Source of the DNA: an uncultured Verrucomicrobiae bacterium
GTDB lineage: Bacteria > Verrucomicrobiota > Verrucomicrobiia > Chthoniobacterales > UBA10450
Length of the DNA: 64,000 nt
NCBI GenBank assembly: GCA_963762685.1
Contig: CAVXLV010000006.1
Location: 167,308-231,307, forward strand
Direction of reading: 5' to 3'
Of this stretch, positions 7,110 to 52,225 are shown in pieces. The translations under genes were made by a program, and so were the position numbers. The notes beneath the pieces are model-generated. The model was given only the letters and a program-made list of their open reading frames with translations. It ran no database searches and was not told where the DNA came from. The first letter of the stretch is position 1, and each line of letters starts with the position of its first letter.

Positions 7110-7184
7110 TGGCTCCTGAGGTAGGACTCGAACCTACGACCAATCGGTTAACAGCCGACCGCTCTACCACTGAGCTACTCAGGA
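7110..7184 (-). tRNA. tRNA-Asn (anticodon GTT), CCA encoded
   Basis: The reverse complement folds as a cloverleaf: TCCTGAG-TA-GCTCAGTGGTAGAGC-G-GTCGG-CTGTTAA-CCGAT-TGGTC-GTAGG-TTCGAGT-CCTAC-CTCAGGA-G-CCA. The anticodon loop is CU-GUU-AA. Confidence 0.9.
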
Positions 7185-7219
7185 TCGTGTGACTCTCCGC
7201 AAAAGGAGAGTGCTGAAAT

Positions 7220-7296
7220 TGGTTGCGGGGGCGGGATTTGAACCCGCGGCCTTCAGGTTATGAGCCTGACGAGCTACCAGACTGCTCCACCCCGCG
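7220..7296 (-). tRNA. tRNA-Met (anticodon CAT), initiator type, CCA encoded
   Basis: The reverse complement is CGCGGGGTGGAGCAGTCTGGTAGCTCGTCAGGCTCATAACCTGAAGGCCGCGGGTTCAAATCCCGCCCCCGCAACCA. It has a C1-A72 mismatch and a GGTTCAAATCC T-arm, as in bacterial tRNA-fMet, and closely resembles E. coli tRNA-fMet from memory. Confidence 0.9.
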
Positions 7297-7309
7297 TCTT
7301 GAGATCGGT

Positions 7310-7337
7310 AGTATGACGCGCTCGCTCCCGCGCGCAA
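7310..7337 (-). promoter_or_regulatory. candidate sigma70-type promoter for the tRNA-fMet/tRNA-Asn unit
   Basis: On the reverse strand: TTGCGC, a 16-nt spacer, then CATACT, ending about 13 nt before the tRNA-fMet 5' end. The match is weak and the promoter consensus of this lineage is unknown. Confidence 0.25.
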
Positions 7338-7398
7338 CTGCATTAATTTTTCCGAACGGTGGATTGATTTCGTTGCCTCACCGCGCTGTCATGAGCGG

Positions 7399-26406: not shown

Positions 26407-29400
26407 ATGTCCCGGCCGAGCTTTGTCTTCCTCGATCCGAGTGGTCGGCGCTGGCCGATCTTCCGCCGCCTCGCGCTGGCCGTGAGTATCATTGCCGGTG
26501 TCGGTTTGGTTCTGTTTGTGGCGGCGGTGTGGATTCGACCAGCGGTGCGGCTGCCCGCCTTCTCGCGCGAGTTACGCAGCCGCCTGAAACCAAACCGGCT
26601 GGCCCTGACGCCGGATCGGAAGGCGCAAGACTGGCAACGCTACAGCGCGCGGGCGCGGGATTTGTTGCAGCATCCCATATCAGCTCCGGCGAAGGTCGGG
26701 CCGCCGTCTCGCAAATTGCCGGTGCGGTTGGCGTTCTTTCCAAATCAAGACGCAAACGCCACTCGATCATTGCGCGAACACGCGGAGCGGCTCACCCATG
26801 TCGCGCCAGATTGGCTGACCGTTTCCGGGGTGGAAAGCGAACTCGCAGTGGAGTCTGATCCGGATTTGAGCGGCTTTCTGTCGCGAGCACGCGCTCTCCG
26901 TAATCCCGATTCTGCGCAACCTGAAAGGCGACGTTTGGCAGCCGGAAGCGGTGGAGGAATTGGCCCGCGCTCCCGTGGACCGGCAACGCGCCTGGGCGGG
27001 AACATTGGCGGAGAAACTGCATTCGTTAGGCGCAGCTGGCGTCTTGCTGGATTTCAATCAGCTCGACCCCAATTTGCAGGCGCAGTTCACCACGCTTTTT
27101 GCGCACATGAGTGAAGTGCTGCGCGCGCACGGGCTGGAATTGTGGGTGGCGGTCTCGATGGACGACGAGTTCGAGAGTTACGATCTCAACGCGCTGGCGC
27201 CGGTGGTGGATCGCTTCGTCGGTCGAATTCTTCGACGAGCACGCGGAAGGCGACGAGCCGGGCCCGATCGCCTCGCAACCCTGGGTGGAAGGCTGGCTGG
27301 AAGTGGCCGCGGATATCGGGACGCCGGAGCAATGGGTCATCGCTCTGGGCGCGCAAGCTTACGATTGGAACACGACGCGCAACCAGACGGAGGCGCTCAG
27401 TTTTCGCGACGCGATGAGCCGCGCCAGTTATGCGGGCGCGGACGTGGCCGGCGAGGTCAACGTGATGGCGCCGGATTACAACGGGCATTTCGGCTACGAA
27501 GAATCGCTCGGCCAGCACGAGGTCTGGTTTCTCGACGCGGTGACCTTGCAAAATCAAATGCGCGCAGCGGCGAAATGGGGCTTCCGCGATTTCGGCGTTT
27601 ACTTCCTCGGCGCGGAGGATCCGGCGATCTGGCAGGTGCTGGCCCGGGCCGAGACGGCGCCTAACGATGGGTTCCTTAAATCGCTGGAGCCTTTACCGGT
27701 AGACGACACCGTGACCCATGTGGGGCGCGGCGAGATCGTGAGCGCGGATTTGAGCCGGGACGCGGGTGCGCGTTCCATCCAGCGGGAGGGCGACGGGCAG
27801 CTGAGCGCGAAATATTCCAATGCGCCCAACTTCCCTGTGCTCTTTCACGATAGCGCGGCGGACGAACACAAAGTGGCGCTCACTTTTGATGACGGTCCCG
27901 ATCCGACCTGGACGCCGCGCGTGCTTGACCTGCTCAAGGAGCGCGGTGTGAAGGCGGCCTTTTTCGTCATTGGCCGCAATGCTGAGCATTACCCGAACCT
28001 GGTCAAACGTATGGTCGCGGAGGGGCACGAAATCGGGAACCACACCTACTCGCATGGCAATCTGGCGGAGATGGCGGAATGGCGTTGGCGCCTGGAGCTG
28101 GATTCGACCGAGCGGTTGATCGAGACCATCACCGGATATTCCACCGCGCTTTTCCGCCCGCCCTATAACGCGGATTCGACGCCGACAGACGTGAGCTGAA
28201 CTGGCGCCGCTCCACTTCGCCGAACATGAACTGGGTTACCTCATCGTGCTCGAAACGATCGATCCGCAGGATTGGGCGCGGCCGGGAGCGGACGCGATCG
28301 TCCAGCGCGTGAAGGAGCAGCGCAGCAAGGGGAACATCATTCTCCTGCACGATGCCGGGGGCGATCGCTCGCAGACCCTGGCTGCGCTGCCGCGGATTCT
28401 CGATTGGCTGGAGGAGCGCGGCGATCGGGTGGTTTCGCTCAGCGAGCTGCTCGGCATCCCGCGCTCCGATCTTATGCCGCGAGTGTCGGCTAACGAGCAG
28501 TTCGGCTGGCGGAGTGTGGCCACGATCGGATTTCGCAGCTGGCATTGGCTGGTGGAATTTTTCTGGTCGTTCATGATTTTCGCCACCGTGCTGGTGGTGC
28601 TGCGGACGCTGCTGATTTGCGGGTTGGCGTTGCGGCAACGACGGGCCGAAAAGCGCCGCGCGCCCGTCGCGTTGGCGCACTGGCCGGGAGTGAGCGTCCT
28701 CATTGCCGCCTACAACGAAGAGCGAGTCATCGCGCGCACGGTGCGCGCAGTTTTGGAGAGCGATTACCGCGGGGAACTCGAAGTGGTGGTAGTGGACGAT
28801 GGGTCCAGCGATCGCACCGCCGAGGAAGTAAGACGGCTCGCCGCGGGCGACGAGCGCCTGCGATTATTGCAGCAGGTCAACGCTGGCAAGCCCGCGGCAC
28901 TGCATCGCGCACTGGACGCCACCCAGCATGAGGTGGTGGTGTTTCTCGATGGCGACACGCTTCTTTGCGCCAGAGACGATTCGGAAACTTGCGGAAGAAT
29001 TGGTCGATCCCGCGGTCACCGCCGTCTCCGGGAATGCGCGCGTCGGCAATCGCGTGAACTTCGTCACGCGCTGCCAATCACTCGAGTATCTCTGCGGGTT
29101 TAACCTCGATCGGCGCGCTTACACGCAATGGAATTGCGTCACGGTGGTGCCGGGCGCGGTGAGCGCCTTTCGCCGCGCGGCGTCTGGCGGAAGCGGGCGG
29201 TTTTTCCCACGACACCCTCGCGGAGGACACGGATCTCACCCTCACGATGCATCGTCTCGGTCATCGCGTGGCCTACGCGCCGGAAGCAATCGCCTGGACG
29301 GAAGCGCCGGAAACGTGGCGCTCGTTAGGCCGGCAGCGGGTGCGCTGGGCTTTCGGCACCATGCAGTGTCTCTGGAAACACCGCGACCTCACCTTCAATC

Positions 29401-29757
29401 CGCGTTTTGGCGCGCTCGGGTTTTTCGCGCTGCCGAGCATCTGGTTCTTTCACATCCTGCTGGTGGCGATCACGCCGCTGGCGGACGCGATCTTACTGTG
29501 GTCGATCCTTGCCGGATACGCGGCGGCGCTTGGGAAAATATTTCGCGCTCTTTCTTTTGCTCGATCTGGCCTTGGCGTTGCTGGCGTGTGCGCTCGAGAA
29601 AGCGCCGCTCCGACGTGCGCTGTTAATTCTTCCCATGCGCTTCGTGTATCGCTGGTTGCTCGCTTGGGTGGTGTGGAAATCCCTGCTCCGGGCGTTGCGC
29701 GGTGCGCTGGTTGGTTGGGGGAAACTGGAGCGCACCGGGACGGTGCGAACGGCATGA
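26407..29757 (+). pseudogene. multidomain exopolysaccharide synthase: TM anchor + GH18-like domain + NodB polysaccharide deacetylase + processive family-2 glycosyltransferase (PgaC/chitin-synthase-like), six +1 frameshifts
   Basis: One protein is reconstructed from ORFs 26281.., 26951.., 27111.., 28246.., 28928.., 29247.. and 29407... Each successive ORF is in the next +1 frame (start coordinate mod 3 runs 1,2,0,1,2,0,1). GH18-like blocks: AAGVLLDFNQLD, VEFFDEHAEGDEPGPIASQPW. NodB blocks: ALTFDDGPDPTWTPRVLDLL, HEIGNHTYSH, LFRPPYN, IILLHD. GT2 blocks: VSVLIAAYNEERVI, VVVVDDGSSDRT, FLDGDT, AEDTDLT, QRVRWAFG (QxxRW), followed by C-terminal TM helices. The stop TGA at 29755-29757 overlaps the next ATG. 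Confidence 0.8.
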
Positions 29758-30914
29758 GGCGTTGGCTCGTCGCGCTGATGTTTTTGCTCGCCGCTTGCGA
29801 GCATGACGCCACGACTGCGGCTTCGCCAACCAAACCGCTCGATCCGCGCGGACGTAAACTGGTTCTGCCCGAGCACGGAATTTACACGGGCGCGTACATG
29901 AACTTCGGCGAGCACGAAGACGATGTGACCCTGGAAAAGATCGAAGCTTTCGAGGAGCTGGTCGGAAAACATCAGGCGATCATTGCCTCGTCCTCTTACT
30001 GGGGAGAGCAGACGTTTCCCGCGGCGAATTTGCAAATCATCGCGCGCCACGGTGCGGTCCCGCTGGTCTTTTGGTCGCCGTGGGATCGTCCCTACGAAGA
30101 GGATCGCGGGCCGGATAAATATTCGCTTTCCTCGATCCTAGCCGGCGCGCACGACGCCTATATCGATCGCTGGGCGGATGGGGCACGGGAATTTGGCGGC
30201 CCCATGGTGCTCTCGTTCGGGAACGAGGCGAACGGATCCTGGTTTCCGTGGAGCGGGAAATATTACGGCGGCGGGACGCAGATTCCCGGAACGGATCCGC
30301 CGCAGTTCCAGGGGCCAGAAACCTTCAAACGCGCCTTTCGTTATCTCGTCGATCGCTTTCGCGCGCGCGGCGCCACCAACGTGCAATGGGTGCTGCACTT
30401 GATGGACTACTCCACGCCGGGGGAGGAATGGAATCTTGCGGCGCAATATTATCCCGGCGCCGATTACGTCGACTGGCTTGGCTTCAGCCTCTACGGCGCG
30501 CAATTCCCGAGCGATGACGGCTACCCGAATTTTGTCTCCTGTTTCGATTGGCCTTACACGGAATTGACCCAGATCGATTCGACCAAACCGATCATGCTTT
30601 GCGAATGGGGCGTGGGCGAGTTTCCCGCGCTCGGCGACAAAGGGGAATGGATTCGCGGAGCGTGGGCAACGATGAGTCAGGGCGAGAAATATCCGCGTTT
30701 CAAGGCGGCGGTTTTTTGGCACGAACGCTGGCAAAACAGCGTGAACAGTGGAGGCGCGGGGAACGAAAATGCCGGGAAGTATAGCGACCTCCGCGCAAAT
30801 TCCTCGGCCGGCGCCTTGAAAGCCTACCGCGCGGGAGTGGCGGCGCCGTATTTCATCGGTACCCCAGCCTTCACCGACCCTGCTGCGCCGGTTCGCGTTT
30901 CTCCCGCGCGCTGA
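29754..30914 (+). CDS. GH26-like glycoside hydrolase lipoprotein
   Basis: The start ATG at 29754 forms an ATGA overlap with the synthase stop. Lipobox LMFLLAAC. GH26-like catalytic blocks SFGNEANGSWFPWSG and IMLCEWGVGEF. Confidence 0.6.
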   Translation: MRRWLVALMFLLAACEHDATTAASPTKPLDPRGRKLVLPEHGIYTGAYMNFGEHEDDVTLEKIEAFEELVGKHQAIIASSSYWGEQTFPAANLQIIARHGAVPLVFWSPWDRPYEEDRGPDKYSLSSILAGAHDAYIDRWADGAREFGGPMVLSFGNEANGSWFPWSGKYYGGGTQIPGTDPPQFQGPETFKRAFRYLVDRFRARGATNVQWVLHLMDYSTPGEEWNLAAQYYPGADYVDWLGFSLYGAQFPSDDGYPNFVSCFDWPYTELTQIDSTKPIMLCEWGVGEFPALGDKGEWIRGAWATMSQGEKYPRFKAAVFWHERWQNSVNSGGAGNENAGKYSDLRANSSAGALKAYRAGVAAPYFIGTPAFTDPAAPVRVSPAR

Positions 30915-30981: not shown

Positions 30982-32313
30982 ATGAAAAAACTCCAGTTGC
31001 TCCTCCTCGCCGGTGCGCTTGCGCAAGCAGCCTCGGCTTCACCCGCGCCCGACGTCACTCTCCGCGTGACGCCGGATCGCGATTACGTTTACCGCTCCGG
31101 CCCGCACGAGATGATCGTGCAGGTGGAAATCGAGGGCCGCAAAAACGATGACGGTCGCCGCGCGCCGATGAACCTCTGTGTTGTCCTCGATCGCAGCGGA
31201 TCGATGGAAGGCGCGAAGATCGAGAAAGCCCGCCAGGCCGCCGCGATGGCGGTGGATAAACTCGGCGACGACGACATCTTTTCGCTCGTCACCTACGACA
31301 ACGAGACGCGGCTGCTCATTCCGCCGCAACGCATCGGAGGACGCGATCACCGCGAGGAGATGAAGGCGCGGATCCACAGCATCCAGCCCGGCGGCAGCAC
31401 CGCTTTGCATGCCGGCGTGGTCCTGGGCGCGCGACAGGTGCGGGATAAATTCGCAAAGGAGCGCGTCAATCGCGTGATCTTGCTCTCGGACGGCATCGCC
31501 AACTCCGGACCCAGCAGCACCGCCGAGCTCGCGAGTCTTGGTCGCGAATTGCGCAGCGACGGTATCGCAGTCAGCACGGTCGGCCTGGGTGACGACTACA
31601 ACGAAGACCTCATGACCGCGCTCGCGGAGTCCAGTAACGCCAACTATTACTACGTGAAGGACGCGGAGAAATTGCCGGGCGTTTTCGCGCAGGAACTCGG
31701 CACCGCGCGTTCGCTGCTCGCGCGCAGCATCGTCATCCGCATCGAGGCGCCGGAAGGCGTGCGCCTGAAGGAAATCATCGGCCGGCCGGATATCGACTGC
31801 GACGATCGGGTGGTGCAGATCAAAATGCCGGAACTCTTCGGCTCGGAGAAGCGGCGTTTCCTCGTGCGCTGTGTGGCGGAAGGAAAATCGGCGGCCGATG
31901 CGATCGAAGCCGCGGCGGTGGAATTAAACTACGCGACACTCAGCGGTGCCCCTGCGCCTTCGCAACGGCAGGCGGTTAAGGTGGCGTTCACCGATGATGA
32001 AAAGAAAGCCGACGCCAGCCTTCGGGTGGAAGTGGCGCGCGAACAAAGCGTAGTGCAGAACCGGCTCGCGAAAGAGCTGGCCGTGAAACTCGCAGACGAA
32101 GGCAAAGCGAAGGACGCCGTCGCGGTCTTGCGGAAACAGGCAGCGCAAAATGCAGCCGCTCCCGCAGCGATGCAGGTCCCGGGATTAGCCGACGAGAACC
32201 GGAAACTCGAAGCCGCCGCTTCAGAAATCGATTCCGCCGGTTCGCTCGCAAAATCGCGCCGCAAAGCCATGCAATACGAAAACTACGCGGACAAATATCA
32301 GAAAGGCCGGTGA
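30982..32313 (+). CDS. secreted von Willebrand factor A (VWA) domain protein
   Basis: 443 aa with signal peptide MKKLQLLLLAGALAQAASA. MIDAS motif VLDRSGSM, plus GGSTAL and ILLSDGIAN. The C-terminus is Ala/Lys-rich and helical. Confidence 0.8.
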   Translation: MKKLQLLLLAGALAQAASASPAPDVTLRVTPDRDYVYRSGPHEMIVQVEIEGRKNDDGRRAPMNLCVVLDRSGSMEGAKIEKARQAAAMAVDKLGDDDIFSLVTYDNETRLLIPPQRIGGRDHREEMKARIHSIQPGGSTALHAGVVLGARQVRDKFAKERVNRVILLSDGIANSGPSSTAELASLGRELRSDGIAVSTVGLGDDYNEDLMTALAESSNANYYYVKDAEKLPGVFAQELGTARSLLARSIVIRIEAPEGVRLKEIIGRPDIDCDDRVVQIKMPELFGSEKRRFLVRCVAEGKSAADAIEAAAVELNYATLSGAPAPSQRQAVKVAFTDDEKKADASLRVEVAREQSVVQNRLAKELAVKLADEGKAKDAVAVLRKQAAQNAAAPAAMQVPGLADENRKLEAAASEIDSAGSLAKSRRKAMQYENYADKYQKGR

Positions 32314-32421
32314 CGCGTCGCCCCGGACCGGCGGACCGTGCGGAGGAGGCTCTCCGCACGCGTCCCGCCGGGACGTGGCTACAATTGCCGACGCAAACGT
32401 GATAGCCTGCGCCCGCCTCTT

Positions 32422-34276
32422 GTGAAACGAAGCATCTGGATCTTCCTCCTCGCCATCGCGCTGCCGAGCATCGGGCTGGGCTGGCTGGCGCTGCGGAGTG
32501 CAGGCGAGCAGCAGATCATCCTCGAACGGCGGACGGCGGAGCTTTACCAGAAGGAAACCGATGCGGTGGCGTTGGGCGCGCGGGAGTTGATCGAGGATGA
32601 GCGGCGCGGTTTTGCGGAAGCGGTGCGGCAATTATTCGTGAGCGAGCAGGCGCCGCAATTGGCCCAGGATTTTGCGGCCAAGCTCGCCCGCACCTGGCCG
32701 CGCGCGGCTGTTGGTTTCGCGCTGGCTGCGGACGGCAATCTCATTTCGCCTTCTGCGGAGGAGGCGCGGAGCGACGTCGAGCGCCAGAAATTCCTGCTTA
32801 ACAACAGCGCGTTCCTCTCGGGTAACGCCGCGGCCACGGTTTACTCGGTGCCTCCCGAAGAACCGCCTTACGCCGCCGACCAGCGGAGAAAAACGAAGAC
32901 TCGATTGGAGGACAAAGCTGCCGCGACGGCGTCCCGTGATGCCGGCGCCGTCCGCAAGCAATCCCAAAAAGCCGCCGCGCCTCCCGCTGCGGCCGCGCCC
33001 GCGCCCGCGATGGCGAAAGAGGAGGACGCGGGTCGGCCACAGTTGCGTAATGTCGCCCCGCAGCGCGTGCTGCAGGAGAATACGCCCGCCATTTCGCAGC
33101 TGGTGCCGGCGACGGCGGATTTCCGGGCGCTGACTTCCGATCGTCCCGAAGGCGTCGTGACGCGGTTCATGCAGGACCAACTCGAGATCGTTTTCTGGCT
33201 GCGGCCACCGGAAGCGGCGGGCATGATTTTCGGGTGTGTGGTGAAGGCGGACGCGCTGGCTAATTTGTGGCGGAACGCTTTGCCCGCGGAAGCCCCGGCC
33301 GAAGTGGTGCTGGCTATTTTAAACGACAGGACGCGGCCAGTGGTGACGCAGCCGCCTAACGAGCGGACGCGGGAGTGGGGCCGACCGTTTGTGGCTTCGG
33401 AAATTGGAGAAGCGTTACCCCACTGGGAAGCGGCGCTTTACCTGCATGCGTCCGCAGCAGTTGCAGGAAAATGCGCGGGACGTCCGGCGTAATCTCCTGC
33501 TCTTGATTGCCGTCGCGCTGGCGGCCATCGCCTTTGGCGGCTGGGCGGTTTTCGCAGATGCGCGTCGGCAGCTCGCTCTGGCGCAGAAGAAGACGGATTT
33601 CGTCTCCAACGTCTCGCATGAATTGAAGACGCCGCTCACTTCGATCCGCATGTTTGCCGAGCTGATGCAGAGCGGGAACGTGGCCGAGGAAAAGCGGCCG
33701 CAGTATTTGCGCATCATCATGGCGGAAGCGGAGCGGCTCACGCGCTTGATCAACAATGTGCTCGATTTCGCGCGGATGGAGCGGAAGCAGAAGCGGTATG
33801 ATTTTCGGCCGCTGGATTTGCACGAGGTGCTCGCGCGGACCTGGGAGGGGCAGGAATTGCATTTGCGCGAGCAGGGTTTTCAAACCCGCTGGCAGGATGC
33901 GCCGGGTCCCTATCCCGTGCGTGGGGACGAGGACGCGCTCGCGCAAGTTTTGGTGAACCTGATTTCGAACGCGGAAAAGTACAGCGGCGAACGGAAGGAA
34001 GTGGAACTGCACAGCTACCTGAATGACGGCTCCATTTGCGTGAGCGTGCTCGACCGCGGATCAGGCGTGCCGGTTGGCGAAGACGGGAAGATTTTCGAAG
34101 CGTTTTATCGTGCGCACGATTCGCTCGCGAGCGGCATCCAGGGCTCCGGTCTCGGACTGACGCTGGCGCAGCGCCTGGCGCAGGAACATGGCGGCGAAAT
34201 TATTTATCAGCCGCGCGAAGGCGGGGGGAGTAATTTCACTTTGCGGCTGCCGTCGGTGGGGGAGAAAGCGAAATGA
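32422..34276 (+). pseudogene. sensor histidine kinase (periplasmic sensor + HisKA + HATPase_c), one +1 frameshift
   Basis: GTG start at 32422 (VKRSIWIFLLAIALPSIGLGWLAL). A long periplasmic domain contains an Ala/Pro-rich stretch. It continues in ORF 33389..34276: a second TM segment LLLLIAVALAAIAFGGW, the H-box FVSNVSHELKTPLTSI, the N box LISNAEKY, and G boxes GSGLGL. The join is near 33441-33446. The span is 1855 nt, which is 3n+1. Confidence 0.8.
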
Positions 34277-44636: not shown

Positions 44637-47063
44637 ATGAACGATCTTCGCTACGCCTTCCGCCAACTTCGGAAATCGCCTGCGCTCACCCTCACAGCGC
44701 TGGCCACGATCGCGATCTGTCTCGGCGCGAACCTCGCGATCTTTGCGGTCATCAATTCCATCCTGCTTCGCCCGCTGCCCTTCCCGCAATCCGACCGCCT
44801 GGTCACGATCTACAATACCTATCCGAAAGCTGGCGTGGAGAATGACGGCTCGTCAGTCACCAACTACTACGAGCGGCGCGGTCAGATCCCGGCTTTCTCC
44901 AACCTCTCCATCTTCCTCAATCGCCCCGAGCCCGTGGGCGAAATCGGTTCGACGGAGCAGGAAGAAACCATGCGCGTGTCGGCTGAGTTCTTCACAACGC
45001 TTGGCGCGGGGCCGGTCATGGGCCGGTCTTTCACGGAAGCGGACATGGCGGACGATGCCAAAGTCGTCATCCTCAGCGACGGCTTCTGGCGCCAGCGCCT
45101 CAACTCCGATCCAGACGTCCTCGGCCGCGATCTGCGCGTAAATGGCATCCTGAGGAAAATCGTTGGAGTCTTGCCTCCGGGTTTTCGATTTCTCTCTTCC
45201 GAAGCTCGCCTTTACATCGCGTATAAGACGGGCGGGGAGCAACGCGGACCCGCAGCGCGCCACTCCGGCGGTGGCGCCGTGCAGATGATCGCGCGCTTGA
45301 AGCCCGACGCGACCCTCGCCGAAGCGCAGGCGCAGATCGACGCGCACAACGCCGCGGTCGAGCAGGATAACCCCGACGCAAAAGCGATGGCGGAGGCGGG
45401 CTTTCGCTCCCCCGTCGCTTCGCTCCATGCGCATCACGTGCGCTCCATCCGGCCGACACTCTTGTTGCTGCAGGCCGGGGTGTTTTTCCTCCTGCTCATC
45501 GGCGTGGTTAATCTGATTAATCTCCTTCTGATCCGCGCGAGCGGCCGCACGAAAGAAATGGCGATCCGTCAAGCGATGGGCGCGCGCCGCCAGCATGTCG
45601 TTAGGCAAGTGCTCACGGAAACCGTTCTCCTCACCGCTACCGGCGGGTTGCTCGGCGTTGTGGCGGGCGCGTGGGGAACCCGGCTGCTCCAGATTCTCGG
45701 CGCGAATCGCTTGCCGCTCGGCGCGCTCATCGACTTTGATGGCTCGCTCGCGTTGATTGGCCTCGTGGGCGCGGTGTTTCTCGGAGTCGTGATCGCGGTG
45801 CCCATCGCCTGGTTCAATCTCGGCAGCCATCCCGCGAATGCGCTCCAAGCGGAATCGCGCACGGGCACGGTCAGTCGCGCCGCGCAGCGCCTTCGCCACG
45901 GCTTCATCGTGGCCCAGATCGCGCTCGCCTTTGTTTTGCTAACGGGTGCCGCGTTGCTCGGGCTGAGCCTCAGCAAGGTGTTGGCCGTGCCTCCCGGCTT
46001 TCGCGCCGACCATGTTCTCGCTGGCAAGTGCGCCCTCACGTGGGAACTCGGGAAGGATCGAGTCGCAGTTGTCGATCTCTTGCTGGAAGCCATCCGGCAG
46101 CAACCTGGGATCGCTGCCGCCGGAACGATCACGAACATTCCGCTGAGCGGAGAGAACGGCAAGACGGCGGTGGCGCCCAAAGGTCATGTGCCGCGGCCGG
46201 GCCAAACCCTCCAAGGTCATTACTCCTACGGGGTCAGCGGAGATTATTTCGCGGCTCTCGGCATCCCACTGCGGGAGGGCCGCTTCCTCACTTCAGAAGA
46301 CTCGCATCGGCCGGATCGTGTTTGCGTCGTGGATGAAGACTTTGCCTCGCGTTACTGGCCGAATGGCGGCGCGCTTGGCCAAAGGCTGGCGCATGGCGGC
46401 GAATCGCAGGACGCAAAACTCTTTACGATCGTAGGCGTTGTCGGATCGGTAAAACAGGCGGAGCTCACGGAAGCTGCCGGGCAAGGAGCGGTTTACCTGC
46501 CCTACGCTCACCACAGCAACGCCGCCGCCTTTTTCGTCGTCGCGCGCACCAGCCAGAATCCGGAAGCGTTCGCCGAGACGCTGCGCAAACTGGTCCGCGC
46601 CACGCAACCGGAGATCGGGATCGAGAACATCCGTTCGATGGACACCCGCATTACGGACAGCCTCATCGCGCGGCGTTCGCCGGCGCTGCTTGCGGGAATT
46701 TTCGCTGGCGTTGCTCTCCTCCTCTCCGCGATCGGAACCTACGGCGTGCTCAGCTACGCCGTCGCGCAACGAACACGCGAGATCGGTATTCGCATGGCCT
46801 TGGGAGCGCAACGCAAACAAGTCGGGACGCACGTCCTCTCGTTAGGCCTGCGCCTGCTCGCGCTTGGGACCGCGCTTGGTCTATTCGGCGCGTGGCTCGC
46901 GGGTCGAGCAATGCAAAACGTCCTCTTCGACATGCCTACGCTGCCTCTCGCCGCGCTCCTCGGCACCGCGCTGGTGCTCAGTGTGACCTCCCTCGTGGCC
47001 TGCCTCATCCCCGCGCTTCGCGCCACGCGTGTCGATCCGATGATTGCCCTGCGTGCTGATTAA
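44637..47063 (+). CDS. ADOP-family duplicated FtsX/MacB-like ABC permease, paralog 1
   Basis: Realistic start ATG at 44637 ([50 protein letters not shown]). Two MacB periplasmic-domain plus FtsX 4-TM modules. C-terminus DPMIALRAD. Intact. Confidence 0.85.
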
Positions 47064-47066
47064 ATT

Positions 47067-47159
47067 ATGAACGATCTGCGCTTCGTCCGCCGCCCACTCC
47101 CAAAGTCCCCCGCCTTCACCGCGCTCACGCTCGCGCTCCGCGACCTCGTCGCGAGATAA
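47067..47159 (+). pseudogene. 30-codon N-terminal remnant of an ADOP permease paralog
   Basis: ATG at 47067 reads [30 protein letters not shown], then TAA (47157-47159). It mimics the conserved ADOP N-terminus (MNDLRYxxRQLxKxPxFT) and then terminates. Confidence 0.5.
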
Positions 47160-47185
47160 ACCAAGCCACCAGCCCCAAAAATTCT

Positions 47186-49648
47186 ATGATGAACGATCTC
47201 CGTTACGGCCTGCGCCAACTGCTCAAACATCCCGGCTTCACCATCGTGGCCGTGCTCACGCTCGCGCTCGGGATTGGAGCCAACACCGCCATCTTTAGCG
47301 TCGTCAACGCGCTCCTGCTAAAGCCGCTGCCATTCCCTGCGCCGGAGCAGTTGGTCGCGTTCGGCATGACCAATACCCGGCACGCCGATATGCGCGATCA
47401 GCTTGGCTCGCTCTCGTATCCCGACTTCTTCGATTTCCGGGAACAAAACCGCACGCTGGCTAATCTGGCCGTCTATCGGGATCGCTTGTTCGCGCTCACC
47501 AGCAGTGAGGGCGCAGCGAGTGTGCGCGGTGTGAAATCGAGTGCCGAATTCTTCGAGGTGCTGGGAGTAAAGCCAGTTCTGGGGCGAGGCTTCGAACGTG
47601 CCGATGAAGCTGCGGCCGGTGGGCCGGGCGGACTCAAGATCGTGCTCAGCTACGCATTTTGGCAGCAGCATTTCGGCGGCGACCAGAATGTGCTCAACCG
47701 CACGATCGAACTCGACCGGCGCCCCTACACCGTCATCGGCGTCATGCCCGCACAGTTCCAGTTCCCGATCCAGGCGGACCCGATCGAGTTCTACGTCACG
47801 ATCGCGGATGACGCCTCCAATCCCGATGGCTCGTCGCCGCCAACAGAGCAGCGGGGCAGCCATAGCCTGAACGCGATCGCGCGTTTAAAACCCGGAGCGA
47901 CCATCGCACAAGCGCAGACCGATCTGGCAACAATCGCGCGCAGTCTGGAGCAACAATTTCCCGACACGAACACGAACTTCGGTGTCGCCTTCAAGACACT
48001 GCGCGACGACCTGATCGGCGATGTGCGCACCGCGCTTTACGTGCTCTTCGGCGCCGTCCTCTGCGTGCTCCTGATCGCGAATGCCAATGTGGCCAATCTC
48101 CTGCTGGCCCGCGCCTCCGTGCGCGGGAAGGAGATGGCGTTGCGCGCCGCGCTGGGCGCGAGCCGGGCCCGCATCGTTCGGCAATTGCTCACCGAAAGCG
48201 TGATGCTGTCTGTGCTTGGCGGCGTGGGCGGTCTCATTCTGGCGCAGTGGGGGACGGAAGCATTGATCAAAGCCGTCCCGCAGAATATTCCGCGCATCGC
48301 GACGATTCAGCTCGATGGCGTTGTTCTCGCTTTCACCTTGCTCGTCTCTCTCGCCACCGGGGTGATATTTGGGTTGGTCCCGGCCTGGCAGGCCTCGCGC
48401 GTCGACCTGAACACCGCGCTTAAATCCGGCTCGCGCACCGGCGGCGGCGGGGAGGGGAAAGGGCGCTTGCGCAATGGGCTGGTTATCGCCGAAGTGGCGC
48501 TGGCGCTCATTCTTCTCATCTGCGCTGGATTGTTGCTGCAAAGCTTCGCGCGTCTCGGCCGCGTTTCGACGGGCATGCGGACCGACCGCCTGCTGACCGC
48601 GCGAGTGCAATTACCCGATGTCGGCTATCCGAAAAACGAAAACATCATCGCATTCTTCGATCAGCTTCTTCCGCGTCTCCGCGCCATTCCTGGAGTTGAG
48701 TCAGCCAGCGTGATCATGCCGCTCCCACTCACTGGCAGCAATATGGTGACGACGTTTGACGACGCCGAACATCCGCTCCCTGACGGGCAGCGGCCGGGCG
48801 CGCCGGTCCGCATCATTGGCACCGATTACTTCCAGACGATGGGAATTCCCGTCCGGCAGGGTCGTGTTTTCAATTCCAGCGATCGCTTCGAAACGGCGCC
48901 CGTCGTGATCGTGAACGAGCGATTTGCGCAGAAGTTTTTCCCGGGCCAGAACGCCCTGGGCAAACGCATCCAGCCCGGCTTCGCGGCGGACGAGTCCGGG
49001 GAAAAGATGCGCGAGATCGTGGGTGTGGTCGGAAACGTGAAGCATCTCGCGCTGAAAAACGAAGACTCGCCGGAGATGTATTTGTCGCAGACGCAGATTC
49101 CGTTTAACAGCATCTCGCTGGTCTTGCGCACGAGCGTGTCGGATCCCGGCGCGTTGACCTCGGCCGTGCGCAAAGAATTGGCCGCGCTGGATCGCTCTCT
49201 TCCCCTAACGAGTGTCCGCGTCTTCGACGAATACGTGGCGCGCTCGCTCGCCCGGCCGCGTTTTGATGCGATCCTGCTTTCCATTTTTGCCGGCACCGCC
49301 CTTCTCTTAACTGCTATCGGCATCTACGGCGTAATGGCTTACTCAGTCGCGCAAAGGACAAACGAAATCGGCATTCGCATTGCGCTGGGGGCCGGGAAGC
49401 AAAACATTTTTCGGCTGATCGTCGGCCACGCCATGTTGTTGGTCGGCATTAGCGTGGCGATCGGGCTGGCGGGAGCGTTTGCCGCCACCCGCTTGCTGAA
49501 CACCATGCTTTTCGGCGTGGGTGCCTCCGATCCCGTCACCTTCATCGCGATCGTCCTGCTCGTTTCGGTGGTCGCTTTTTTGGCCGCGTGGTTGCCGGCG
49601 CGCCGCGCATCGAATGTGAATCCAATCGTGGCGCTGCGGGCTGAATAA
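47186..49648 (+). CDS. ADOP-family duplicated FtsX/MacB-like ABC permease, paralog 2
   Basis: 820 aa and intact. N-terminus [52 protein letters not shown]-terminus NPIVALRAE. Confidence 0.85.
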
Positions 49649-49765
49649 AATGAAAGCTTCCAGCAGCGAAATTCGACTTCCAGGGCAGTTCCAAACTTTA
49701 AGCTTCCGGCTTGGAGGCGCGTTTCCTTTTGTGTGTGGAGCTTGGGCATTCTCTGGAGCTTTCCG

Positions 49766-52225
49766 ATGATAACCGAAATCCGCTACGCCCTGCGCCAACT
49801 GCTTAAGCATCCCGGCTTCACCCTCGTCGCCGTCCTCGCGCTCGCGCTTGGGATCGGAGCCAACACCGCCATCTTCAGCGTGGTCAACGCGGTCCTTTTG
49901 CGCCCGCTGCCCTATCCGGAGCCGGATCGGCTGGTGATGATTCGCGAAACCACGGCGACGTTTCCGAGTGGCTCGGTCAGCTATCCGAACTTCCTCGATT
50001 GGCGGGAAGGTCAACGTTCTTTCACCGACATCACGCTGACGCGCCGGGAGAGTTTTAATTTCTCGTTGCTGGCGAGCGAGGCCTCGCCCGAACGCGTGGG
50101 CGCCGGCCGCGTGACGTGGAACTTCCTCGCGATTCTCGGGGTGCAGCCGCTGCTCGGGCGCGACCTGACGGAAGCGGATGATGTGCCGGGCGCAGCGCCG
50201 GTGGCGGTGATTAGTGAGCACTTGTGGAAATCGAAGTTCGGCGCGTCACCGAAAGTGCTCGGTCAACGCATCCTGCTCGATGGCGTCCCAACCGAAATCG
50301 TCGGTGTGGCTCCAGAGGCACTGGCTTTTCCCCGCCTCGCAGAAGTGTGGGTGCCGATGGCTGATTTGCGGAAAGAGCAGGGCATCACGGCCCGCGGCAA
50401 TCATCCCGGATTCTCCGCGCTGGGACGGTTGCAGCCGGGGATATCGCTGCAGCAGGCGACGGCGGATTTGAATACGATCGCGGCAGAACTGGAGCGCCTT
50501 TACCCGGATTCGAACGCCATGCGGCGCGTGCGGATGGATCTGCTGCTCGAAGCGGCGGTGGGCGATTACCGGCACAGCTTGCATTTGCTCCTCGCCGCGG
50601 TCGCATGCGTGTTGCTGATCGCCTGCGCGAACGTGGCCAATCTGCAATTGGCGCGTGCGCTGGCCCGCAGCAAAGAACTGGCGGTGCGTGCTGCTTTGGG
50701 CGCGAGCCGCTGGCAGTTGATGCGGCAGATGTTAACCGAAAGCGTTCTCCTCGCTTTCGCGGGCGCGCTCGCGGGCGTGCTGCTCGCGATCTGGAGCCTG
50801 GATGCAATCCTCGCGCTCAGTCCCGCGCGGGTGGCGCGTTTCCAGGAAACGCGCATCGACCTTTTGGCGCTTCTTTTCACTGGCGTCGTGGCGCTGGGCG
50901 CGGGGATCTTGGTGGGAATCTGGCCCGCCTGGCGCGTTTCGAATACTGCGCAATTGGCCTTGGTGCTGCACGAAGCCGGCTCGCGCGGCGGGAGCGGCGG
51001 TTCCCGGAAACAGCGCGCCCGCAGTGCGCTCGTAATCACGCAGGTCGCGCTCGCCGTGATCTTGCTGGCGGGCGCGGGTCTGACCTTGAAAAGCTTTTGG
51101 CGGGCGCAAAATGCTCCGCTCCATTTTGATCCGACACATCTGTTGACGGTCGGAATTGCGCTGCCCGAGACGCGTTACAAGGAAGACGAAAAGCAGGTCG
51201 CGTTTTTTGCACAACTGGTCGAGCGCGTGCGCGTCTTGCCGGGGGTGGAAGCGGCGGCAATTGGTTCCAATATTCCCTTCGACGACAGCGAATGGGACAG
51301 CAGCTTTCACATTACCGGCACGCCGGAGCCGCCGAAAGGCCAGGAGCCGTCGGCGGAGGTCAACATCGTCTCAGCCCGACTACTTCCGCGCGCTCGGCCT
51401 GCCGATTCTGCGCGGCCGCACTTTCGGACCGGAAGACGTGATGGAGAAAGGCCGCTCGCGTTCCGTCATCATCGATGAAACGCTCGCGCGGAAATATTTC
51501 CCGAACGAGGACCCGATCGGGCGTCAGATCGACGACAATCAAACGTTCGAGAAAGAGCCGCCGCCGCTCACGATCGTGGGCGTCGTTCCGCGGACGCGGA
51601 ACGAAGCAGTGGGAGAGCAAAACGTGGAGATGCTGCAAGTTTCACCATCTGTATTTCGCCGCGTCGCAATACGCCACGACCGGCAGCACGCTGGTCGTCC
51701 GAGTGAAAAACGGAGTCGACCCGCTCTCGCTTGTCCCCGCCGTCCGGCGCGAGGTGCAGGCTCTCGATTCGGCGCAGCCGTTAGGCCCGGTGGCGACGAT
51801 GGAAGAAAACATCGGCAGCAGCCTGGCCACGCGCCGCCTCACGATGGTCTTGCTCGGCTCGTTTGCTGGCTTGGCGTTGACTCCTCGCCAGCCTCGGCTT
51901 GTACGGCGTGATGGCGTTGAGCGTGACCCAAAGAACGCGCGAGCTCGGGATTCGGATGGCGCTGGGTGCGGCGCGCGCGGATGTCTTCCGGTTGGTTTTG
52001 GGGCAGGGGATTTTGCTGGTTGGAATCGGGCTGGCCGTGGGTTTACTCGGCGCCCTCGCGACTGGGCGGGCGCTCGCGAGCGTGCTCTACGGAGTGGGCT
52101 CGATCGATGTGGTGGCCTTGATCGTAGCCTTGGTTGCGCTGGCCAGCGTGGCCATGCTGGCGTGCTTCGTGCCCGCGCGGCGGGCGACGTTGGTGGATCC
52201 GATGGTCGCGTTGCGCGACGAATAA
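49766..52225 (+). pseudogene. ADOP-family duplicated FtsX/MacB-like ABC permease, paralog 3, three +1 frameshifts
   Basis: Start at 49766 ([51 protein letters not shown]). It continues via the 51156 frame ([28 protein letters not shown]), the 51475 frame (FHHLYFAASQ..STLVVRVKNG..LATRRLTMVLLGSFAGLAL) and the 51899 frame ([33 protein letters not shown]). The joins are near 51371-51377, 51637-51642 and 51880. The start coordinate mod 3 runs 2,0,1,2. Confidence 0.8.

Follow-up and report, generated by a model that had tools for sequence, protein, structure and literature searches.

What does a locus encode whose reading frame changes six times within 3.35 kb, and do these changes belong to the organism or to its assembly? 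The question arises at positions 26407-30914 (+ strand) of a 64,000-nucleotide stretch, hereafter the window, of contig CAVXLV010000006.1 in the 3.36-Mb assembly GCA_963762685.1, which represents an uncultured Verrucomicrobiae bacterium of the order Chthoniobacterales. An earlier note, made from the letters of the window, had proposed that the locus encodes one polypeptide with an N-terminal transmembrane (TM) helix, a chitinase-like domain, a NodB deacetylase and a GT2 glycosyltransferase, followed by a coupled GH26-like lipoprotein. We consider it likely that the two genes form a synthase-dependent exopolysaccharide module, that the product is a partly de-N-acetylated polymer of N-acetylglucosamine (GlcNAc), and that the frameshifts are errors of assembly.

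The synthase gene occupies positions 26407-29757 (+) as seven open stretches in the frame order 1, 2, 0, 1, 2, 0, 1 (Table 1). We compared it with the genomes of two relatives, G010 and G017; the latter belongs to the same genus and is the best relative, with 84% DNA identity. DNA alignment with G017 places the six frame changes near positions 26872, 27220, 28194, 28963, 29183 and 29535, with one surplus base in the window at each, so the count of six shifts in the gene, all +1, stands as first given. When the seven stretches are joined in their own frames, they yield 1114 codons and no stop, and the product aligns to the G017 orthologue without gaps at 89% identity. All junctions are seamless (that between segments 1 and 2 reads DPDLS/AFCREH), and the ratio of nonsynonymous to synonymous substitution (dN/dS) against G017 is 0.089. 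In both G017 and G010 the synthase is a single intact open reading frame (ORF), and the lipoprotein gene comes next, overlapping it by 4 nucleotides; the check on orthologues suggested by the earlier note thus upholds its claim of one polypeptide.

We found the domain order of the synthase to be TM helix, GH18 fold, CE4 deacetylase, TM helix, processive GT2 and further TM helices. Pfam recognizes the CE4 domain in the window fragment (PF01522, E = 7e-38) and in the G017 orthologue (E = 1e-36), and the GT2 domain through PF00535 (E = 1e-22, segment 4) and PF13641; among the GT2 families there are also weak matches to Chitin_synth_2, both in the window fragments and in the G017 orthologue. The GH18 domain was missed by Pfam on the window fragments and on the intact G017 orthologue, and was recovered by sequence search of the PDB, by family alignment and by fold search. 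Residues 107-414 align with positions 4-313 of the 317 residues of 5jh8, a GH18 'probable chitinase' (E = 2e-14, phmmer against PDB); YdhD and SleL are matched as well, and the domain is homologous to a true PF00704 protein. In the same sequence search the CE4 domain matches 7y51 (E = 6e-42) and the GT2 domain matches 6yv7 and BcsA.

Fold searches gave the same assignments. An AlphaFold2 model was built on the homologue P0001, which is 84% identical (mean pLDDT 81, pTM 0.63), and its parts were compared with known structures by Foldseek. The N-terminal domain is closest to 5jh8 (TM-score 0.85, root-mean-square deviation 2.8), with SleL and a class V chitinase also found; the CE4 domain resembles Bc1960 (TM-score 0.83); and the GT2 domain with its TM part resembles hyaluronan synthases, PcManGT and BcsA, with C-terminal helices at residues 993-1124. 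Domain placement by these routes therefore recovers GH18 (not GH153), CE4 and processive GT2, as had been predicted. We also observed in this model a small five-stranded all-beta module that separates the GH18 barrel from the CE4 domain, at residues ~455-505.

Hydropathy, flanking Arg/Lys residues and the model place TM1 at residues ~22-44 and TM2 at residues ~712-738, the latter followed by RQRRAQK and then by the C-terminal helix bundle. The hydropathy and the flanking positive residues, above all RQRRAQK after TM2, suggest that the GH18 and CE4 domains lie outside the membrane and the GT2 domain inside it.

The catalytic motifs of the deacetylase and the synthase are complete. The window encodes the full set of five CE4 motifs (TFDDGP, HTYSH, FRPPY, IDPQDW and LLHD) and the signatures of a processive GT2 (DDGS, DGD, AEDTD and QRVRW), with TM helices after the glycosyltransferase domain; both the intact NodB blocks and the D, DxD, ED and QRVRW motifs described in the earlier note are thereby borne out. 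Across 74 homologues from six phyla, the CE4 and GT2 motifs are invariant. The best NCBIfam model for the GT2 domain is TIGR03937 (PgaC_IcaA) with 196.4 bits, ahead of NodC (119) and CelA (95).

The GH18 domain has the fold without the full catalytic DxE: its glutamate is replaced by asparagine (DFN) in the window and in G017, and the motif is indeed degenerate, as had been noted. Among homologues, the strand-4 motif reads xG(I/V)N(I/V)DFE in Bacillota, Acidobacteriota, Cyanobacteria and Armatimonadota, and GVVVDWE in most Chthoniobacterales. In place of the glutamate, the window's genus has Asn, the Udaeobacter group Gln, Desulfobacterota Gly, and Domibacillus and Peribacillus Ser or Val. Because DFE or DWE is kept in most lineages, the ancestral domain carried the DxE pair, and the glutamate has been lost repeatedly. 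To judge from these residues, the GH18 domain of this organism most likely serves for binding.

The synthase stop codon TGA overlaps the ATG of the lipoprotein gene at position 29754 (ATGA), and the coupling to a GH26-like lipoprotein thus holds. The product of this second gene scores 50.9 bits with PF02156, for which the Pfam gathering threshold is 20.2. Among solved structures the lichenase CtLic26A (PDB 2vi0, E = 3.5e-21) comes closest to it, with both catalytic glutamates aligned (the acid/base in NEANG and the nucleophile in CEWG). The signal sequence MRRWLVALMFLLAAC/EH identifies it as a lipoprotein, the lipobox (LLAAC) having been read by eye. More than 1380 homologues of the lipoprotein were found, all with PF02156.

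The pairing of the two genes recurs. Among 80 homologous loci, 36 have a GH26 gene directly downstream of the synthase, and all 36 come from Verrucomicrobiota, Desulfobacterota or proteobacterial metagenome-assembled genomes. Conversely, when three unrelated contigs were picked by way of GH26 homologues, the synthase was their sole common neighbour (3 of 3). Two database proteins, P0039 and P0040 (1486 and 1461 aa), hold synthase and GH26 in one chain, either as a natural fusion or through a lost stop codon. In both chains the former signal peptide is kept as a linking helix, an arrangement that is topologically plausible.

Domibacillus and Peribacillus have a different partner: the gene downstream of the synthase encodes a true GH18 (PF00704, E = 1e-38 to 1e-40; L086:7336-8448 and L091:7319-8476). 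A stand-alone GH18 follows the synthase in exactly these two Bacillota, in which the fused GH18 lacks the glutamate (DFS and DFV), and upstream of the Domibacillus synthase lies an IcaC-like Acyl_transf_3 gene. A link between loss of the GH18 glutamate and presence of GH26 was considered and rejected, as Verrucomicrobiota show no simple relation and the two Bacillota with a stand-alone GH18 are too few.

The synthase family is widespread. By tblastn against one-genome-per-species collections, full-length collinear homology (residues 6-1111) was found at at least 582 loci spanning six or more phyla: Verrucomicrobiota, Desulfobacterota, Acidobacteriota, Bacillota, Cyanobacteria and Armatimonadota. 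Coverage of the same residues in at least 60 loci from six phyla places the gene within a GH18-CE4-GT2 family. More than 300 database proteins of ~1115 aa match the synthase, and these bear only generic names ('glycosyltransferase', 'polysaccharide deacetylase family protein'). Judging by the locus titles, the carriers come from soil, peat and groundwater metagenomes and include Chthoniobacterales, among them Ca. Udaeobacter, and Acidobacteriota (Bryobacterales, Terriglobia). Carriers in culture include Aneurinibacillus tyrosinisolvens, Neobacillus pocheonensis and Domibacillus indicus.

We propose that the 1114-residue inner-membrane protein would use its PgaC/IcaA-like GT2 domain and its own TM helices to polymerise UDP-GlcNAc and to thread the chain across the membrane. 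On the outer side, the CE4 domain, tethered by TM1 and TM2, would strip some of the N-acetyl groups, while the GH18-fold domain would hold the chain, probably binding rather than cutting it in this genus, where the catalytic glutamate is missing. The translationally coupled periplasmic GH26 lipoprotein, with its catalytic pair intact, would trim or release the polymer, a role that we liken to that of BcsZ and of the hydrolase domains of PgaB and PelA in other systems. Such a module would be among the simplest conceivable exopolysaccharide machines, with two genes and no dedicated exporter.

This proposal needs to be interpreted cautiously, as several points weigh against it. Substrate and linkage are read from homology, in a three-domain family that has no studied member. 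The GT2 score against TIGR03937 (196.4 bits) is under half the equivalog cut-off of 422.3 bits. Neither a porin or other outer-membrane exporter nor a PgaD/IcaD-like gene was found nearby, a small unannotated ORF not having been specifically excluded. The known activities of GH18 enzymes and of the GH26 relatives concern beta-1,4 or beta-1,3 bonds, not beta-1,6. Finally, rpoB, rpoC, gyrA and secA are unbroken in this assembly. Real mutations under selection would leave the same picture, although it is compatible with the local error rates.

We give a beta-1,6 polymer resembling poly-N-acetylglucosamine (PNAG) about an even chance, because of the affinity of the GT2 domain and the precedent of Streptomyces MatB. 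The strongest alternative, to which we assign a somewhat less than even chance, is that the machine is otherwise the same and its product is a chitin- or chitosan-like beta-1,4-GlcNAc polymer, with GH18 and GH26 acting on beta-1,4 bonds. The N-terminal domain is a GH18 of the YdhD, SleL and class V chitinase type whose catalytic DxE is kept in most lineages, and the separate GH18 that follows the synthase in Domibacillus and Peribacillus, the nearest CE4 relatives, which act on beta-1,4 substrates, the nearest GH26 structure, which cuts beta-1,4 bonds, and the Chitin_synth matches in Pfam all point the same way. Yet the PgaC_IcaA model outscores NodC (196 against 119 bits), an IcaC-like acyltransferase gene adjoins the Domibacillus homologue, and MatB, for which the bioinformatic evidence was equally ambiguous, makes beta-1,6 PNAG (PMC5972031). 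A product of neither kind is improbable.

It is probable that the substrate of the GH26 lipoprotein is not a beta-glucan, because its gene is fixed beside a GlcNAc-type synthase. We know of no GH26 enzyme that acts on polymers of GlcNAc or glucosamine (GlcN). One tentative idea, which we regard as doubtful, is that GH18-CE4-GT2 synthases make a beta-1,4 exopolysaccharide and that the GH26 of Verrucomicrobiota and Desulfobacterota may represent a new GlcNAc/GlcN specificity, taking over the cutting where the fused GH18 no longer has its glutamate. Knowledge of the polymer would be relevant to how soils aggregate and to the chemistry of biofilms, and might give family GH26 a further substrate.

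We then consider the frameshifts. A census of the window by homology (tblastn of G017 and G010 ORFs against the window) gave ~22 '+1' and ~4 '-1' events. The statement of the earlier note that all are +1 is true of the synthase gene and nearly so of the window. A dicodon frame hidden Markov model (HMM) trained on this genome, which recovers all six synthase shifts, gave 22 '+1' and one '-1' in the window; for the control, which comprised 132 kb of syntenic sequence of the two relatives, it gave 3 '+1' and 4 '-1'. Across the 3.36-Mb assembly it called 567 '+1' and 128 '-1' events, while events that resemble true gene boundaries numbered 169 '+1' and 307 '-1', with the usual ATGA bias. Neither a homopolymer excess nor a convincing motif was found at the 567 '+1' sites, where k-mers gave weak compositional effects only.

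The synthase holds 6 events in 3.35 kb where ~1.3 would be expected for the window, and within the window it is the hotspot that it had been called. About eight other places in the genome have 6-7 events per 3.35 kb, and the ratio of variance to mean is 1.85 in 5-kb bins, so that a hotspot specific to this gene was rejected. Genes elsewhere are affected in the same manner: ileS, for which the genome has a single match, runs through three frames by way of two +1 shifts (contig C8, 24018-26458); another gene for a class I aminoacyl-tRNA synthetase is in five pieces (C13, 200465-202693); a dnaE fragment at the end of contig C1 (134920-136374) is in four; and hemL is broken inside the window.

Because the events are random, context-free and biased to insertion, hit essential genes, leave codon-level conservation intact and are absent from the syntenic DNA of relatives, the six synthase insertions are most likely errors of assembly and not biology. 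The six extra bases would then be expected to be absent at the level of the reads. We estimate about one spurious inserted base per 6 kb in this assembly, and suggest that pseudogenes, split genes and frameshifts in this genome be treated as artefacts unless reads show otherwise.

It is very unlikely, in our judgement, that the frameshifts are real and that the synthase and hundreds of other genes are recent pseudogenes in a decaying genome. The extra bases are present in the deposited sequence, the events are clustered, and rpoB, rpoC, gyrA and secA, all long and essential, carry no break, all of which would fit such decay. Six independent insertions would, on the other hand, have had to accumulate in a gene that has neither a nonsense codon nor any further indel and whose dN/dS is 0.089. 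The excess of insertions over deletions, ~4-6:1 with no homopolymer association, is the opposite of known bacterial mutation spectra; the sole ileS lies in three frames, the second synthetase gene in five and hemL is broken; and the syntenic DNA of two congeners gives background calls only.

A third reading, in which the cell decodes the shifts by programmed +1 frameshifting or by reading quadruplets and makes protein from the sequence as deposited, has almost no probability: nearly all events have the same sign and the old-frame stop lies exactly at the shift in one of the six sites (AGC TGA), but the six sites share no sequence, the 567 genome-wide sites lack any homopolymer signal or k-mer enrichment beyond weak compositional effects, the old frame remains open for 40-450 codons past the shift in five of the six with no stop or hungry codon as mark, and in relatives these residues are encoded with no extra base. 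Two specific forms were rejected, namely a common shift site or a four-letter word read as one residue (the six contexts differ, and no k-mer or homopolymer is enriched at the 567 sites) and a +1 shift triggered by a stop codon, which was found at the shift in one of six sites.

We also observed that '+1' density varies about eight-fold between contigs, from 0.4 to 3.3 per 10 kb (C9, C12, C16 and C22 against C8, C15 and C6). Uneven read depth among contigs would give such differences. A histidine kinase gene (HisKA + HATPase_c; 32338-34276, +) is split by one +1 near 33419-33451, an event of the same kind as those in the synthase.

With assembly error as the preferred explanation, the gene order of the corrected locus is given in Table 1. 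Other neighbours in the window are Kup, an SDR protein, a VWA-domain protein and the histidine kinase just described. The VWA-domain protein is predicted to be secreted (PF00092, E = 3e-22; 30982-32313, +) and its gene begins 67 nucleotides after the GH26 gene. It occupies the same position in G017 and G010, and lies outside the module in more distant loci. Two further stretches of the window drew attention. About 240 nucleotides at ~7110-7350 are 91% identical in G017, whereas the flanks are 74-84% identical; over 54 nucleotides they agree fully (100%) with the termini of two contigs of G010. An RNA gene or a repeat at which assemblies break could explain this. Gene pieces at ~46700-52200 have dozens of counterparts in G017 (contigs C57, C6 and C10) at 66-82% identity, which points to a large paralogous gene family.

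Table 1. Segments of the synthase gene and the GH26 lipoprotein gene, in window coordinates.
Feature	Position	Strand	Frame	Content
Synthase segment 1	26407..26871	+	1	Start ATG; cytoplasmic Arg-rich N-terminus; TM1 (~residues 22-44); start of GH18
Synthase segment 2	26873..27220	+	2	GH18 strand 4, motif AAGVLLDFNQLD, Glu of DxE replaced by Asn
Synthase segment 3	27222..28193	+	0	Remainder of GH18; small beta-rich linker; CE4 motifs 1-3 (TFDDGP, HEIGNHTYSH, FRPPY)
Synthase segment 4	28195..28962	+	1	CE4 motifs 4-5 (IDPQDW, LLHD); TM2 then RQRRAEKRR; N-terminal half of GT2 (VVDDGSSD, FLDGDT)
Synthase segment 5	28964..29182	+	2	Middle part of GT2
Synthase segment 6	29184..29534	+	0	GT2 TLAEDTD (catalytic base) and QRVRW; first C-terminal TM helices
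Synthase segment 7	29536..29757	+	1	Last TM helices; VGWGKLERT motif; stop TGA 29755-29757
GH26 lipoprotein	29754..30914	+		Intact, 386 aa; lipobox LLAAC; acid/base Glu in GNEANGSW, nucleophile Glu in IMLCEWG

In comparing the module with known systems, we found by literature searches no study of the three-domain fusion, nor of GH26 in PNAG-type loci. Fusions of a glycosyltransferase and a deacetylase in Gram-negative loci without pgaA and pgaD have been noted by Bundalovic-Torma et al. (PMC7112194). Streptomyces MatB (SCO2962) is a bifunctional CE4-TM-GT2 protein which, with MatA, makes PNAG, and from its published description it appears to be the closest studied relative (PMC5972031). On that description, both proteins appear to join an outside CE4 domain, nearest to the PgdA/NodB type, through a TM helix to an inside PgaC-like GT2 domain in one polypeptide, and both systems are synthase-dependent, with no Wzx/Wzy genes. 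They differ in that the synthase described here adds an N-terminal TM helix and a GH18-fold domain of ~330 residues, in that its partner is a GH26 lipoprotein and not MatA, and in that its host is diderm.

Likeness to a fused pgaB and pgaC, which the earlier note had proposed, stands in part. The GT2 domain is 34% identical to E. coli PgaC over 273 residues (E = 6e-43), and the functional logic of synthase, deacetylase and glycoside hydrolase is that of the Pga/Ica systems, equivalent to PgaC plus the two domains of PgaB. Sequence similarity to E. coli PgaB is insignificant (BLASTP, best E = 0.11), and no PgaB chain is present among the best 60 of 82 PDB sequence matches or the best 50 fold matches; MatB is the better comparator. 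Unlike PgaB, the hydrolase-fold domain here is GH18 and not GH153, the domain order is reversed, and the CE4 domain is of the PgdA/NodB/PdaB type; unlike Pga/Ica loci, there is no PgaA porin and no PgaD/IcaD near the synthase, and a cyclic di-GMP module was not seen.

The lipoprotein resembles Clostridium thermocellum Lic26A, a GH26 lichenase (2vi0/2bv9), over nearly the whole domain and in both catalytic glutamates; the two are ~30% or less alike, and the lipoprotein here is coupled to a GlcNAc-type synthase. Within the GH18-CE4-GT2 family itself the motifs are identical, apart from the asparagine that replaces the GH18 glutamate in the window's genus. The gene is thus an ordinary member of a common, unstudied GH18-CE4-GT2 family, a variant of the MatB/Pga-type systems, to the description of which the present analysis adds the taxonomic range of the GH26 partner, the recurrent loss of the GH18 glutamate and evidence that the frameshifts are an artefact running through the whole assembly.

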